Assembly (NCBI GenBank): GCA_965222205.1
Contig: OZ244932.1
Span: 1,158,896-1,222,895, forward strand
DNA length: 64,000 nucleotides
Direction of reading: 5' to 3'
Origin: Balneolaceae bacterium
GTDB lineage: Bacteria > Bacteroidota > Rhodothermia > Balneolales > Balneolaceae
Part shown: one piece after another, positions 12,831-20,127 of the stretch
How positions within the stretch are numbered: position 1 is the stretch's first letter
How the letters are laid out: each line of letters begins with the position of its first letter
Translations under genes and position numbers: made by a program
The notes under the pieces: model-generated
What the model was told of the DNA's origin: nothing
Databases searched by the model: none
Seen by the model: the letters and a program-made list of their open reading frames with translations, nothing else

Positions 12831-13011
12831 TACGGTTCTGGTCTTGAACGGAATCAGTATCCAGAGAAGGTAACATTGCCGAAAAACCGTCTGTTTATGA
12901 GTCTTTTTAAAAAAACGAAGACACTTCGTAAGGAAGAACTACATCCATGAATGGCTATTTGAAACAAAAACTTGCATCTCTGCTAAGAGTAACGCTTTTT
13001 AGGCGTGTGCT

Positions 13012-13320
13012 TTAATTTAGAAAATGCAAACACATAGAGCGAACCTTTTTCGCGCTTAACTCAATTTCCTTTTGAAAATGCTCTACATTTTCAAAACGGT
13101 GAACAAACTCTTCTTCTGGGATTCTTAAATTTATTGCTGATACCGATAGATAATTATCCCTACGATCGTAATTAATCTTTACTCGTGTTTGCTTCTGTTC
13201 ATATTCGAGGTAAACAAACATGTTTTCGTTTTTGGAAGTAACCAATTTGAAGTTCTGTTCTTTAGTAAGAAAAGAGAATTGATTTTTGGCTTCTTTATAA
13301 AATTGGTTTGTTGAAAACAT
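13012..13320 (-). CDS. hypothetical protein (cassette-type small ORF)
   Basis: 102-aa AT-rich ORF. ATG lies 17 nt downstream of the GTTAGGC core site. No recognisable domain. Confidence 0.5.
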   Translation of the reverse strand: MFSTNQFYKEAKNQFSFLTKEQNFKLVTSKNENMFVYLEYEQKQTRVKINYDRRDNYLSVSAINLRIPEEEFVHRFENVEHFQKEIELSAKKVRSMCLHFLN

Positions 13321-13336
13321 GAAGCAGTTTAAATAC

Positions 13337-13359
13337 GCCTAACGACCCTGCGTTTAAGG
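13337..13359 (-). repeat. attC-like site, L'-R' half (R' = GTTAGGC on minus strand), interrupted by IS copy 1
   Basis: On the minus strand reads ccttaaacgcagggtcGTTAGGC. Homologous to the L'-R' arm of the intact site at 18649-18680. Confidence 0.6.
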
Positions 13360-13402
13360 TACTGTGTTAAAAATCAATACTACGATACTAAAATTAGTAT
13401 CT

Positions 13403-14533
13403 TTATTCCATCAGAAAGGAAACAGTCATTTCATGTGGCGGTTTACCTTGTGGTTCCCCGCCCTTGGTGGGGAACTTTCTTTTTTCTTCGCCATCTGTTT
13501 GCAGGATCGGTTCATTAACGGAATGTTCTGTTCTCGGATCTGGCTCGCGATAGGGTTCATTTTTCTTCCACAGGGTATACATTAGTATTAAGAGCTTTTT
13601 TTGTACCGCCACGTAGCTCTTCATTTTAATGTTATGTTTACTGTAGGTCCGGTGAAACAAGGCGTGTAACGGTTTAACCTGACAGCTCACCGCGGTGATG
13701 GCCGGAAAATATAAGGCCCGTCGTATGCGTGAATTTCCTTTTTTGGAGATCTTTGTGGTGCCAATGCGTTTGCCCGACTGATCTTCTACCACATCATATC
13801 CGCTGTAGCTCACCAATTGCCCGATGTTTTCCATCAGCGCAAAGCCGTTGGTTTCTGCCAGAAGTATGGCTACGGTTGTCAGCCCAACTCCTTTGATGCT
13901 ACACAGGTGGGCTACTTTCTCGGTGATCTCCGGGTCGGAGTTCAAGTGGCTGATGATGGCTTTTTCGAGCCTTGTCATTTGTTTCTCTAAGGTCCGGATC
14001 AGCGATTTGAGCTGTCGGGTAACTACCCCAACCTGGTAGATACTGTGTTGGGTGGCGTGGAGTTGGTTGGAGAGACTGGTTTTATTCTTTTGCAGGCTTT
14101 CCAGTTGCCGGGTCATGGTGCGCAGGGTGAAGAAAAACTCGCTCATAGGCTGCCAGCGAGGCAGGGCTTGTTCGGCTCCCATACGGGCCAATCCCTTCGC
14201 ATCAATGGCGTCATTTTTAGACCGGAGTCCCAGCGACTCCAGATACTTTTTAGACTTATTGGGGAGGATTACCGATACGTATAAACCAGCTTTACTTAAC
14301 GCCAGGGCGCAGTTTTCGTAGTACACACCGGTAGCCTCCAGCAGGCATACCAATGGCACCTGTTGTTGGAGGTGGTGCTTGCTGGTCCAGCGGATCAGGG
14401 CCTTATATCCTGCCGGTGAATTGGCGAATGCTTTGGTGGACATCACCTGCACGTGCTGTTGAAGGTTGATAGTGGACAGGCAGCAGGCTAACGAATCTGC
14501 TGACACATCAATACCCAGGGAATACTTTAACAT
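13403..14533 (-). CDS. IS110-family DEDD recombinase/transposase
   Basis: 376 aa. N-terminal RuvC-like DEDD motifs (LGIDVS, LLEATG, KNDAIDA). C-terminal Transposase_20-type domain (IKGVGLTTVAILLAE...SGK..G...ISKKGNSRIRRALY). Confidence 0.93.
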   Translation of the reverse strand: MLKYSLGIDVSADSLACCLSTINLQQHVQVMSTKAFANSPAGYKALIRWTSKHHLQQQVPLVCLLEATGVYYENCALALSKAGLYVSVILPNKSKKYLESLGLRSKNDAIDAKGLARMGAEQALPRWQPMSEFFFTLRTMTRQLESLQKNKTSLSNQLHATQHSIYQVGVVTRQLKSLIRTLEKQMTRLEKAIISHLNSDPEITEKVAHLCSIKGVGLTTVAILLAETNGFALMENIGQLVSYSGYDVVEDQSGKRIGTTKISKKGNSRIRRALYFPAITAVSCQVKPLHALFHRTYSKHNIKMKSYVAVQKKLLILMYTLWKKNEPYREPDPRTEHSVNEPILQTDGEEKRKFPTKGGEPQGKPPHEMTVSFLME

Positions 14534-14800
14534 GGCTCATACCATTAGGAGTTGGATGATTTATACAAGCAGAAACCACCACTTCTTTCTCCATTGCTCA
14601 TCGTTTATCGGGTATTCATAGGTAACCTATGATACATAAGTACTGTTGAGGATCTGAAGGAGTGACGAAAGGCAGGGATTCCTTAAACCCGGCATCGTAA
14701 ACTACGTGCAATAATTAGCGGCGATCGGTGCTACTGCCTCTCGTTATCTGTTTGTCTTGCTGGTACAATACGTACTTTTTGAAAGATATGAGCGGCGAGT
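14534..14800 (-). ncRNA. candidate bridge/guide RNA region of IS copy 1 (left-end non-coding arm)
   Basis: 267 nt with no ORF. Stems at 14734-14739/14670-14675 and at about 14611-14640. Contains segments identical to both IS termini and complementary to the flanking target (details in findings). Confidence 0.45.
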
Positions 14801-14893
14801 ATGGTTATGGGTTAATAAACGATGATAAATTTTAAACAAGCAACTCCGGAAAACAACAGCACGTCCGCGTCCCAGTTGATGCGCTTGTTAGTG
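14801..14893 (-). repeat. attC-like site, R''-L'' half plus central spacer (R'' = CACTAAC on minus strand)
   Basis: On the minus strand reads CACTAACaagcgcatcaactgggacgcggacg... This is homologous to the R''-L'' arm of the intact site (CTAACaatgcgttttaaatcggacgcggacgggg). It begins 8 nt after the stop codon of 14901..15446. Confidence 0.6.
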
Positions 14894-14900
14894 CACATTT

Positions 14901-18390: not shown

Positions 18391-18621
18391 GTTTGAAAGT
18401 TTTTTGTAACGACCATAAATAAAGAACGCAATTGAAAGGTTAATTGCAGAAAAAACAAAGTAACCACTTGCAAAGATCATTGAACCTTTAAACTCTGCAG
18501 CAATTTTATTTGGACTGAAGTAATAAAAGTGATTAAGCAAAGTGTGGATTGAAAAATAAAGAAAGAAGACTCCAATTAAGGTGAGTATAGTTATCGATAT
18601 TTTATAAATGACTTGTTTCAA
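18385..18621 (-). CDS. small membrane protein (two predicted TM helices), cassette-type ORF
   Basis: 78-aa hydrophobic ORF. No family recognised. Confidence 0.5.
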   Translation of the reverse strand: MKQVIYKISITILTLIGVFFLYFSIHTLLNHFYYFSPNKIAAEFKGSMIFASGYFVFSAINLSIAFFIYGRYKKLSNV

Positions 18622-18648
18622 TGATTTAATCTCAAAACGTATAACGAA

Positions 18649-18761
18649 CCTGCGTTTAAACGGCGCGGGGATTATGATTTATTTGAAGTAGCGAAAATAA
18701 TTCCTGGCAATCAAGTTTCGTCGCACCCCGTCCGCGTCCGATTTAAAACGCATTGTTAGCC
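18649..18761 (-). repeat. intact attC-like imperfect palindrome (about 113 bp)
   Basis: The minus strand reads GGCTAACaatgcgttttaaatcggacgcggacgggg, then a ~55-nt spacer, then ccccgcgccgtttaaacgcaggttcGTTATAC. The arms pair with asymmetric bulges. R'' matches RYYYAAC at 6 of 7 positions. R' keeps the GTT core, but its RRRY positions (ATAC) fit GTTRRRY less well. Confidence 0.65.
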
Positions 18762-18763
18762 TG

Positions 18764-19366
18764 CTATTCCATGAGGCTTTGATCTAAGAAAGAAGCCAAG
18801 CCATTCATGACATTTTGAAAAGATGATTGCAAGGCACTTCTTGCTGTTGAATAACCACCTGTATTGGGCTTGGACACAACATCGGATATTTCTTTGGAAT
18901 ATTTATCTTCACCATCTCGATAGTCATAAAGCATCACTCCAAGCCCTGTTAGTCCGTTCCATTTACCATCAGCTACGCCACTGAATCGGAATACAAACGG
19001 TTGTCCATTGATTGAGCCAATTCCAGATGTTGATTCAACACCAAAACCAGCGTTATATCCTGCAACATTTATCTTTAAAGTTATTTTGCTGTTTTCAGGA
19101 GAAGAAAAATATTCTGAACTATTAATCTTCTGAAAATTTGCAGCAGGATAGGTTTTTCTCAAATGCTCAAGGATTGAATTTTGTACTTCTAGTGACGCAT
19201 CTTTTTCACTTCGTGAGTCAAAGAAAACAACATCAATTCGTTCATTTTTTAAAAATCCAGATCTTGGAGTCGTAGAAGTTTGTGAGGGAGCATAAGTTTT
19301 GCTTGTAGCGCAGCTAACAAATAGAAAAATCGAAACTACACTACATATTTTTAAGAAAGTATTCAT
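18764..19366 (-). CDS. hypothetical lipoprotein
   Basis: 200 aa with signal peptide and lipobox (LFVSC). Confidence 0.55.
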   Translation of the reverse strand: MNTFLKICSVVSIFLFVSCATSKTYAPSQTSTTPRSGFLKNERIDVVFFDSRSEKDASLEVQNSILEHLRKTYPAANFQKINSSEYFSSPENSKITLKINVAGYNAGFGVESTSGIGSINGQPFVFRFSGVADGKWNGLTGLGVMLYDYRDGEDKYSKEISDVVSKPNTGGYSTARSALQSSFQNVMNGLASFLDQSLME

Positions 19367-19397
19367 AGCTCTTTAAAGATTTTGCAAACAATTTAGA

Positions 19398-20099
19398 TTA
19401 ACTCAGTTCTGGTCCATAACTACGTTCGGGCAATAAATACCAAAACTGCTTTAATGCTTCACAATACTCGTTAAATAAATCTTGACTGATATTCAAAACT
19501 TCAGATAATAAGGATGATTCAATTGTAGAAGAAAAACTAGCTTTAAGATATGACTGTGTAAATAATTGTTCTTCTAGCTCTTTCAATTTTTTTGCAGATC
19601 GACCATCACCATGTTTGATGACATTATATAACAGCTGTAGTTCATTTATTTTTTCCCAACAATCAAGAGTTTCAATTTCAACACCATGATATTCAAACAT
19701 CTCTTTGATTTCGCGGAAATTAGTGCAAAATGTTTCCATTTCAATTTTAAAACAGTGTCTCATTTCTTTGAATAGAAATCTTCTAATCTGCTGTTCCCAA
19801 AGCATAAATGCTGTAGATATAGCCGAAGCTGTAAATTCATATTTAATTAATGACAGTTCTTGGTATTTATAGATTCCTTTTTCAAGTGCAGAATCAGCCA
19901 ATGATGAAGGATCAATCTCTTGTCCATAAGACTCCATGCCTTTTTGGAAAAAAGTATCTGAATGTTCTTCTGCTTCTTTTTCAATTTCATCAAAGTTTGG
20001 GAAAAGTCTTTCGTTATAGAATTTTTGAAAAGACTCAATCTCCGATTTTAAATACTTTCGCAGATCATTGTATAGATAAAGCTGACTTTTCTGTGACAT
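19398..20099 (-). CDS. hypothetical protein
   Basis: 233-aa AT-rich ORF with no recognisable domain. Shares one cassette-like unit with 18764..19366. Confidence 0.55.
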   Translation of the reverse strand: MSQKSQLYLYNDLRKYLKSEIESFQKFYNERLFPNFDEIEKEAEEHSDTFFQKGMESYGQEIDPSSLADSALEKGIYKYQELSLIKYEFTASAISTAFMLWEQQIRRFLFKEMRHCFKIEMETFCTNFREIKEMFEYHGVEIETLDCWEKINELQLLYNVIKHGDGRSAKKLKELEEQLFTQSYLKASFSSTIESSLLSEVLNISQDLFNEYCEALKQFWYLLPERSYGPELS

Positions 20100-20116
20100 G
20101 GGGTTTAGTTAAGTAA

Positions 20117-20127
20117 GCAGGCTAACA
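20117..20127 (-). other. recombination-core-like site (GTTAGCC on minus strand) at the head of the cassette array
   Basis: gcaggctaaca (20117-20127) is the exact reverse complement of tgttagcctgc (18754-18764), the R''-side of the first cassette's own 3' site. Confidence 0.55.

Follow-up and report, generated by a model that had tools for sequence, protein, structure and literature searches.

A probable remnant of a chromosomal integron in a Balneolaceae bacterium and the IS110-family elements inserted in its attC sites

In the genome of a Balneolaceae bacterium (GenBank assembly GCA_965222205.1, contig OZ244932.1, positions 1,158,896 to 1,222,895), small AT-rich open reading frames (ORFs) alternate with imperfect palindromes over about 7 kb. 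The question raised by this locus is whether the palindromes are attC sites and the units between them are integron cassettes, and, if so, which part of an integron has been preserved in a stretch that encodes no integrase. The whole stretch analyzed, 64 kb in length, is referred to here as the window, and the array was read at 12975-20402. We consider this interval to be the integrase-proximal end of a decaying chromosomal integron of a type common in the Balneolaceae (phylum Balneolota), and we place the probability of this reading at about 90%. The array is a fresh example of a known system and not a novel kind of system.

The palindromes as attC sites

When the arm motif TAACGANCCTGCGTTTAA was scanned against one genome per species, at least 118 loci (labelled L and a number) were listed, overwhelmingly from Balneola, Gracilimonas, and other Balneolaceae, including Gracilimonas tropica DSM 19535 and Balneola sp. 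EhC07. The source genome of the window is not among these loci; the 84-95% identity of attC, insertion-sequence, and attI sequences is in keeping with an origin of the window in the Balneolaceae. An iterated nhmmer profile seeded from the intact site of the window, attC1, and run on the loci listed detected attC in 96 of them, with 456 copies in total and 407 strong ones. Within a locus, all copies are on one strand; the median spacing is 568 bp, an 8-kb tile holds up to 15 copies, and the Balneolaceae arrays reach at least 25-30 attC sites in the tiles examined. In nine of the loci listed, a divergent ORF of 311-350 aa is located at the upstream (5′) end of the array. The ORFs of six of these loci were scanned with the NCBIfam model TIGR02249 "integron integrase" (cutoff 265 bits) and scored 403-456 bits over essentially the full model; by tblastn, full-length copies were found in all nine. 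Because the arrays start at TIGR02249 integrases, the repeat family is tied to integrons without leaning on resemblance, and the proposal of the initial annotation that the palindromes are attC sites between integron cassettes is thereby supported.

The boundaries of the repeat point in the same direction. In 362 full-length attC copies, TAAC and GTTA are (nearly) invariant, conservation stops exactly there, and the flanks are variable. If recombination occurs at G|TT, a cassette that brings its own attC with it should have two ends that are complementary beyond these boxes. In 269 adjacent attC pairs, the own-end complementarity at positions 1-8 past GTTA was 0.96, 0.94, 0.95, 0.96, 0.79, 0.80, 0.67, and 0.34, compared with 0.26-0.55 for random pairings, and a 6/6 end match occurred in 182 of the 269 adjacent pairs versus 36 of 5000 random pairs. 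Family-wide, the cassette ends of the relatives (269 cassettes) are thus complementary for approximately 7 nt past TAAC/GTTA.

The structure of the family was derived from an alignment of 80 members (A1). Its consensus hairpin (RNAalifold) has an R box TAACGA/TTGTTA, four unpaired bases (CCCN) on the 5′ arm, an L stem in which GCGTTTAAGCGG is paired with CCG(A)CTT(G)AAACGC and extra bases lie on the 3′ arm, and a variable centre. In the hand-extended stem, 87.8% of the cells are paired, compared with 40-50% with slid partners; compensatory changes occur at 12 stem pairs, and the observed values were reached by 0 of 500 shuffles. The structural claim rests on this covariation because the folding energies of single sites do not beat shuffles. 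The plus strand of the window corresponds to the bottom strand of the sites, so that the 5′ arm is R′-L′, the 3′ arm is L″-R″, and the bulges are on the ″ arm, as in known attC sites such as the Vibrio cholerae repeat (VCR) and the aadA attC. The R-L spacer is asymmetric, with 2 nt on the ″ side and 6 nt on the ′ side. The sites fall into two main length classes of approximately 92 and 128 nt, reach approximately 200 nt, and have diverse centres; in addition to the structure, the arm sequence is conserved inside the Balneolaceae clade, as it is in the VCRs. Two short-class sites, L099:3384-3499 and L105:323-438, carry an extra insertion of approximately 18 nt (GTCGAAGATCCCCTCGGG) in the L″ arm, between CTT and GAAACGC.

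Within the window, the arm TAACGAMCCTGCGTTTAA occurs three times (13340, 15454, and 18642), whereas 0.07 occurrences are expected in 64 kb. The only intact site is attC1, located at 18638-18761 on the plus strand, with R′ TAAC at 18642-18645, L′ GCGTTTAAACGG, a variable centre, L″ CCGATTTAAAACGC, and R″ GTTA at 18755-18758. A covariance model (R1) built from A1 and run unfiltered on the whole window scored this site at 106 bits (E = 7e-26), its fold is an extended, imperfectly paired stem whose 3′ arm carries single-base bulges, and over approximately 120 nt (18641-18759) it shares 84-95% identity with many of the copies found in arrays of Gracilimonas and Balneolaceae. The second site, attC2, is split by two insertion sequences (ISs), the IS1111-like element IS-B and copy 2 of the IS110-type element IS-A, into pieces at 18383-18390, 16905-16968, and 15454-15472; the middle piece scored 36.8 bits, and when the pieces are rejoined, the bottom strand gives the family hairpin and the top strand does not. 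The third site, attC3, is split by IS-A copy 1 into pieces at 14791-14890 and 13340-13358. Its rejoined arms are different variants, the common L′ GCGTTTAAGCGG and a minority-variant L″ (…CCCAGTTGATGCGC); they fail to form the family hairpin, and the centre is unlike that of the attC of a 91%-identical cassette in locus L113. One possible cause of this mismatch is recombination between IS-A copies that were located in different sites. The last site, attC4 (12990-13004), is eroded: only the ″ arm, AACGC TT TTTA, persists, GTT has become TTT with mutation of the critical G, no ′ arm is recognisable, and R1 has no match at 12240-12990. Apart from attC1, the middle piece of attC2, and weak arm fragments, R1 matches nothing else in 64 kb, and the array is therefore bounded. 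Rfam 15, which holds no attC or bridge-RNA family, gave nothing relevant for the whole window at the gathering threshold or for 12-21 kb and 12.3-12.9 kb at E<=5-10.

Four cassettes, all on the minus strand, occupy 12975-20126. Cassette 1 (18645-20125), which extends between the TAAC boxes of attI and attC1, contains ORFs at 19398-20099 (233 aa) and 18764-19366 (200 aa) and ends with attC1. Cassette 2 (15457-18644) contains an ORF at 18385-18621 (78 aa) and attC2, cassette 3 (13343-15456) contains an ORF at 14901-15446 (181 aa) and attC3, and cassette 4 (12975-13342) contains an ORF at 13012-13320 (102 aa) and the eroded attC4. The five ORFs have GC contents of 0.28-0.35, compared with 0.41 for the window. 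None of the five belongs to a Pfam, NCBIfam, or PADLOC family above cutoff, and the 233-aa ORF has only sub-threshold matches, to DUF1385 and a DRT HEPN model.

The ends of the four cassettes were checked by script. Complementarity is 11/11 for cassette 1 (20117-20127 against 18754-18764), 11/11 for cassette 2 (18635-18645 against 18384-18394), 12/12 for cassette 3 (15446-15457 against 14887-14898), and 9/11 for cassette 4 (13333-13343 against 12998-13008). An unanchored inverted repeat of 11 nt within 1.5 kb is expected approximately 2.5 times by chance in 7 kb by our own estimate; the significance of the match therefore does not come from its 11 nt alone but from its being anchored at the invariant TAAC/GTTA, just outside of which the unit-specific bases match at 7/7, 7/7, 8/8, and 6/7 positions in cassettes 1 to 4, respectively. 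Cassette 3 provides an independent view of such a unit, as it recurs at 91% nucleotide and 88% amino acid identity in L113:3365-3907, between two attC sites and in an array whose neighbours differ from those of the window; a more distant copy of its ORF (35% amino acid identity) is present in L045.

Much of what the initial annotation had read from the letters stands after these comparisons: the ORFs are AT-rich and all on the minus strand, the L′-R′ arms are homologous to one another, one site is intact with asymmetric bulges, and the fold of the bottom strand, which it had proposed as a check, has R and L boxes with extrahelical bases on the ″ arm in the family consensus. Three of its four pairs of complementary ends hold as written; the stretch that it gave as 18645-18655 was misplaced by 10 nt and is that of 18635-18645. 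It had named fixed synteny of the same ORFs without palindromes in related genomes as an outcome contrary to its reading, and the cassette 3 relative lies instead between attC sites and among other neighbours.

The head of the array and the loss of intI

A Pfam scan of 30 window ORFs (the five cassette ORFs, the three IS-family transposases, and flanking and integrase-sized ORFs) detected no tyrosine recombinase, and four Balneolaceae IntI proteins compared with the window by tblastn gave nothing below E = 0.3. The statement of the initial annotation that no tyrosine recombinase is encoded in the window is accurate for ORFs, but a remnant of approximately 70 nt from the 5′ end of intI was overlooked. 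This remnant, at 20332-20402 on the plus strand, consists of ATG GGT AAG TCT and approximately 20 degenerate, frameshifted codons.

The remnant was recognized in an alignment (A2) of the window with the attI-intI regions of seven complete integrons (L044, L094, L021, L102, L115, L101, and L087). In addition to the start of intI at 20332, the features aligned at 20117-20402 are the junction (C/A)TAAC|ATAATATTATCCGAAC, repeated GTTCGGATAAAATCC-like motifs, and a conserved TTTTGTAAGGACTTCCTC block. An attI-like and intI promoter region on the minus strand is thus homologous to that of complete integrons over 20123-20331. Its putative attI crossover box, TAAC|ATAATATTAT, is located at 20123-20136 on the plus strand, with the same junction in the complete integrons, and is followed by repeated GTCCC(A/G)ATAAA(A/G)TCC motifs and TTTTGTAATGATTTCCTC. 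By homology and position, 20123-20331 is the likely attI of the array.

Up to 20329, the window is as close to the seven rows as those rows are to one another. Over the intI remnant, its identity to them falls to 0.46-0.55, versus 0.62-0.74 among the rows, and past 20402 it is 0.34, the background level, versus 0.67 among the rows. Because the homology to attI, the promoter, and the first codons ends at approximately 20402, we conclude that intI has been deleted in place after approximately 24 codons with the attI region left behind. The sequence after the breakpoint is a hairpin repeat similar to repetitive extragenic palindromes (REPs), followed by an FG-GAP-repeat gene. A metagenome scan for the window-specific intI remnant returned 0 matches. 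Because attI and the first codons of intI are upstream of cassette 1, we consider the array to be the proximal end of an integron and not a distal fragment.

Arrays headed by an attI-like stretch with no full intI in the 8-kb tile were also observed at L036, L049, L055, L058, L107, L017, and L008. The loss of intI with retention of attI may recur in the Balneolaceae, or the platform may be duplicated.

According to the established integron mechanism, which we extend to this locus by homology, IntI would fold the bottom strand of attC (the plus strand of the window) into a hairpin in which the R box (TAAC/GTTA) is paired, the L stem holds extrahelical bases, and the loop varies, and would recombine this hairpin at G|TT with either attI or a second attC. 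In this way, cassettes that lack promoters would enter next to attI or leave as circles, and, as its own attC travels with it, each cassette would begin with the complement of its own R″ side. The window copy would then have decayed through the deletion of intI, two cuts in attC2 and one in attC3 by ISs, and the erosion of attC4. With three of its four attC sites broken or eroded, the array would have no mobile unit left except possibly cassette 1, which would need IntI supplied from elsewhere in the genome. The locus offers a concrete case of integron decay, in which intI is deleted with attI kept, attC sites are split by site-specific ISs, and the terminal attC is eroded.

IS110-family elements within the attC sites

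The three transposases of the window (13403-14533, 15517-16647, and 17035-18096) are IS110-family DEDD enzymes with PF01548 and PF02371 according to Pfam, and, as the initial annotation had noted, all three elements are located within sites, namely attC2 and attC3. We consider all three to be attC specialists, IS-A at a CT core in the L′ box and IS-B at a TG core at the inner edge of R″.

The two copies of IS-A, both on the minus strand, are identical over 1462 nt (13339-14800 and 15453-16914). Because the last 11 nt of the identical block are attC sequence in the R1 alignment, the body of the element is fixed at 13359-14790 for copy 1 (transposase gene, tnp, 13403-14533) and 15473-16904 for copy 2 (1432 bp; tnp 15517-16647). 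Tandem duplication of IS-A together with a cassette was considered and rejected, as the outer flanks are cassette-specific. The element has a non-coding region of 257 nt upstream of tnp (14534-14790 in copy 1) versus 44 nt downstream and is without long terminal inverted repeats. At copy 2, the CT core, which reads AG on the plus strand, borders the element inside the L′ box of attC2, GCGTTTA-AG-CGGCG, and in the orientation of the IS the junctions read CTCGCCG-CT-[CATATC…CACAGTAC]-CT-TAAACGCAGGG, with the CT core on both sides and within the L′ box. Relatives with 72% identity in a Balneola metagenome-assembled genome (MAG; loci L002 and L082) occupy the same attC nucleotide in the same orientation.

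The non-coding region of IS-A contains TCGCCGCT, which equals the left target plus the core, and 28 nt farther on, beyond a small hairpin, it contains GTTTAAG, the reverse complement of the core plus the right target. Both matches are kept in the relatives, in which one is extended to 9 nt. The guide 8-mer alone is only modestly unlikely, being reached in 44 of 500 shuffles. When metagenomes were scanned for the IS-A terminus GGTACTGTGTTAAAANTCAA, at least 120 elements were listed, abutting many different flanks; the guide test was performed on 50 full-length ones. A 7-mer guide for the element's own flank is present in 26 of these 50, versus 25 of 2356 (1.1%) for guides to the targets of other elements. 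The geometry TAAC-N6-N6-AA was observed in 23 of 115 metagenomic insertions. This guide-target covariation fits targeting by a bridge RNA or seekRNA, and an RNA from the non-coding region of the IS, with guides matching attC, would be the most likely targeting mechanism. In the metagenome contigs L119, L123, L140, L196, L206, and L234, a sister lineage of IS-A is found in a different attC-like family, TAACGGTTYGGTGGCTAA|GCGGCGA…CCGCTTGAGCCACTTTGTTAT, at the same structural position (the L′ box), and its predicted guide is changed to GGCTAAG.

IS-B (16969-18382, plus strand, 1414 bp; DEDD transposase 17035-18096) has the converse layout, with a non-coding region of 286 nt downstream of tnp versus 66 nt upstream and terminal inverted repeats ATCTTTA(C)AAAAAGGA. 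It is flanked on both sides by TG, within AAACGCT-TG-TTAT of attC2, at the inner edge of R″. Its relatives in L026, L080, L033, and L051 are located at the same attC position in the same orientation, in both short- and long-class attC sites, and five independent loci share the junction AAACGCTTG|...|GTTAT. In a Balneolaceae MAG (L026:4052-5147), the composite of the window recurs at 77-87% identity, with the right end of IS-A followed by approximately 65 nt of a short-class attC and then by IS-B; its IS-A is cut to the last ~120 nt, and its IS-B has an internal deletion.

The transposases were also compared with plasmid-borne genes. That of IS-A is 36-46% identical to Bacteroidota plasmid-borne transposases, and that of IS-B is at most 34% identical to any IS110-family gene in 72,556 plasmid records, many of which are from Klebsiella and Escherichia.

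IS621 is an IS110-type element with a bridge RNA upstream of tnp, and the pattern of IS-A was compared with it. A second such element, ISEc21, has a seekRNA upstream of tnp, as cited in PMC11187229. IS-A is similar to both in its upstream non-coding region, the CT core on both flanks, two guides with a hairpin between them, and guide-target covariation, and it differs in being directed at the L′ box of integron attC sites. For an attC or L′-box specialist of the IS110 type, as opposed to the IS1111 type, no description was found in the literature searched. The targeting of attC by the IS1111 family and guidance by seekRNA have been published (PMC11187229), and ISKpn4, ISPst6, and ISPa25 are assigned there to an IS1111-attC group (Tetu & Holmes, 2008; Post & Hall, 2009, both as cited in PMC11187229). 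ISPa21 is also a member of the described clade. IS-B is similar to this group in its DEDD transposase, downstream non-coding region, and (sub)terminal inverted repeats, as well as in entering attC at one position and in one orientation, and it differs in host phylum and attC family. The likeness is one of layout and insertion site; because of the identity of at most 34% to any plasmid-borne match, IS-B is no close relative of the group. The locus offers a natural set of guide-target pairs for IS110-type bridge-RNA elements, among them lineages directed at the recombination sites of integrons.

Weighing of the readings, comparison with known systems, and surroundings

Several results weigh against our interpretation of the locus and its elements. 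When folded as single sequences, attC1 and the rejoined attC2 are not more stable than their shuffled versions (z = -0.5 to -0.7), and an R-L spacer of 2 versus 6 nt is unlike that of a textbook attC. No Pc (cassette promoter) was identified: the Bacteroidetes TAnnTTTG (-7) motif does not occur on either strand of 20090-20460, and the promoter type of the clade is not established. In the test of the left guide, the left-flank 8-mer is repeated approximately 75 nt inside the element in 10 of 16 elements versus 0 of 168 controls, but this result rests mostly on elements that share one flank. The best guide candidate of IS-B, AACAAGC (the reverse complement of GCT-TG-TT), is only 7 nt in length and not significant, being reached in 216 of 500 shuffles.

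The unexceptional folding energy and the presence of another REP-like hairpin family in the genome are what might be expected if the palindromes were a generic repeat resembling attC, whether REPs, bacterial interspersed mosaic elements (BIMEs), or miniature inverted-repeat transposable elements (MITEs), and if the small ORFs were ordinary genes or non-genes. We give this explanation almost no credence, because the arrays begin at integron integrases, conservation stops exactly at TAAC/GTTA, a whole unit recurs in another array, and in 269 units the two ends complement each other at 7 variable positions, a feature not foreseen by a REP or MITE model. Equally hard to credit is the idea that the shared 18-nt arm TAACGACCCTGCGTTTAA is a part of IS-A that was carried along, which would make two of the "sites" artefacts of IS duplication. 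The copies are indeed identical from 13339 and 15453, 20 nt outside the body of the IS; however, the arm is present without an IS in attC1 and in hundreds of family members, the IS-A terminus abuts many unrelated flanks in metagenomes, and the bases to the left of TAAC differ between the copies, each fitting its own cassette.

A further question is how the array came to lack an integrase. It could be a distal piece of a large chromosomal integron that was parted from its integrase by rearrangement, as the 64 kb contain no integrase ORF and the relatives hold several arrays per genome, some without intI in the tile. Nevertheless, an internal fragment would begin with attC and not with attI, and the sequence upstream of cassette 1 is homologous to the head of complete integrons, from attI through the intI promoter to the first intI codons, and shares their TAAC|ATAATATTAT junction; a distal origin is therefore quite improbable. 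The initial annotation had offered both a CALIN (a cluster of attC sites without an integron integrase) and the distal part of a chromosomal integron. The former description stands in its operational sense and the latter does not, given that attI and the start of intI are kept. Whether the CALIN is still functional, with an IntI from elsewhere in the genome acting in trans, is a separate matter: attI and attC1 look intact, the relatives have one intI-linked array plus further arrays, and half of all CALINs sit in IntI-encoding replicons (PMC4889954), whereas three of the four attC sites here are broken or eroded. We regard a functional array of this kind as doubtful, although far less so than the other alternatives, and we retain the reading of a decaying, integrase-proximal end.

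Loss of intI is one of the four origins proposed for CALINs (Cury et al., 2016, PMC4889954), and the array of the window, with one intact and three damaged attC sites and no integrase in 64 kb, is a CALIN of this "intI lost" origin. It has at least two attC sites and no integrase within reach, like other CALINs. A recognisable intI pseudogene was reported in only 15 of 279 CALINs, detected via the C-terminal domain (PMC4889954); the remnant described here is unlike those pseudogenes in that it comprises the N-terminal ~24 codons and attI. Because it is detectable only against related complete integrons, a standard run would miss it, and some CALINs can thus be identified as "intI-lost" only by such a comparison.

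The closest known likeness of the Balneolaceae system is the Vibrio cholerae superintegron. Both have a family of repeats of approximately 90-130 nt whose members differ little inside the clade, long arrays in which short and mostly unknown ORFs share one strand, and (in the relatives of the window) a divergent intI with attI at one end; they further share the R box TAAC/GTTA, the extra L-stem bases on the ″ arm, and own-end complementarity. Unlike the superintegron, the Balneolaceae system is found in the Balneolota, with a different arm family (GCGTTTAAGCGG), two attC length classes (~92 and ~128 nt), and an R-L spacer of 2 versus 6 nt, and the window copy has lost intI and has damage in most of its attC sites. 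In the IntegronFinder 2.0 survey (PMC9024848), 93% of the complete integrons were from gamma-Proteobacteria, so that the remark of the initial annotation that such arrays are rarely described outside the Proteobacteria was fair; Salinibacter ruber M1 was reported there as an example from the Bacteroidetes. Judged from the description in that survey, the S. ruber M1 integron is similar in lying in the Bacteroidota/Rhodothermia-Balneolia neighbourhood, whereas in the Balneolaceae the system extends across the family, and its arrays reach at least 25-30 attC sites in the tiles examined. Full-text literature searches that paired integrons with Balneol* and Gracilimonas names turned up no account of the Balneolaceae arrays. 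With these arrays, a well-populated and cultivable clade (examples are G. tropica DSM 19535 and Balneola sp. EhC07) joins the small number of groups outside the Proteobacteria in which large chromosomal integrons are found, and they provide a second, phylogenetically distant system in which the rules of attC structure can be tested, here with an asymmetric R-L spacer.

We regard the family-wide integron system of the Balneolaceae and the guide-target covariation of IS-A as the most interesting by-products of this study. A joint reading of the two, to which we would give even odds, is that the Balneolaceae carry so-far undescribed, VCR-like sedentary integrons (attC sites that number in the hundreds and are nearly identical, and, in each genome, several arrays that carry attI but have in many cases lost intI) that are parasitised by two unrelated RNA-guided IS110-family lineages set for different attC nucleotides, and that the IS110-type lineage retargets its guide to diverging attC families (GCGTTTAA|GCGG versus GTGGCTAA|GCGG). 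If this were true, attC would be a recurrent "safe harbour" for bridge-RNA elements, and these elements would freeze cassettes and erode integrons.

Several features of the surroundings were also recorded. Just past the eroded attC4, a GC-rich block of approximately 300-360 nt (12440-12800) folds into strong RNA structure on either strand (z = -6.0 and -5.7). Rfam returned nothing for it, even at E<=10, and it contains no tRNA or tmRNA; identification as a group II intron, tmRNA, or RNase P was considered and is without Rfam or ARAGORN support. Partial homologues at L083:7709-7916 (minus strand) and L118:2814-2893 (plus strand) likewise lie distal to attC arrays, and a compensatory change was noted in one hairpin.

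A REP-like hairpin repeat of approximately 55-70 nt (…GAGTCCCCTTCCCTTGATTAAAGGGAAGGGAC…) occurs at 20500-20579, 21881-21934, and 22462-22531, in all cases intergenic, with one copy directly after the intI deletion breakpoint; the repeat is also present in the Balneola loci L001, L011 (three copies), L022, L062, and L083. An ECF (extracytoplasmic function) sigma factor gene (22567-23166) is parted from a FecR anti-sigma gene (10297-11256) and a gene with a CarboxypepD_reg domain (7636-10290, 884 aa). The approximately 11 kb between the sigma and anti-sigma genes hold a DUF559 gene, the FG-GAP gene, and the integron remnant, and this block may be an insertion into a sigma/anti-sigma/receptor operon. 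At 60288-60343, a Whalefall-1 RNA motif was detected with a score of 57 bits versus a gathering score of 37.

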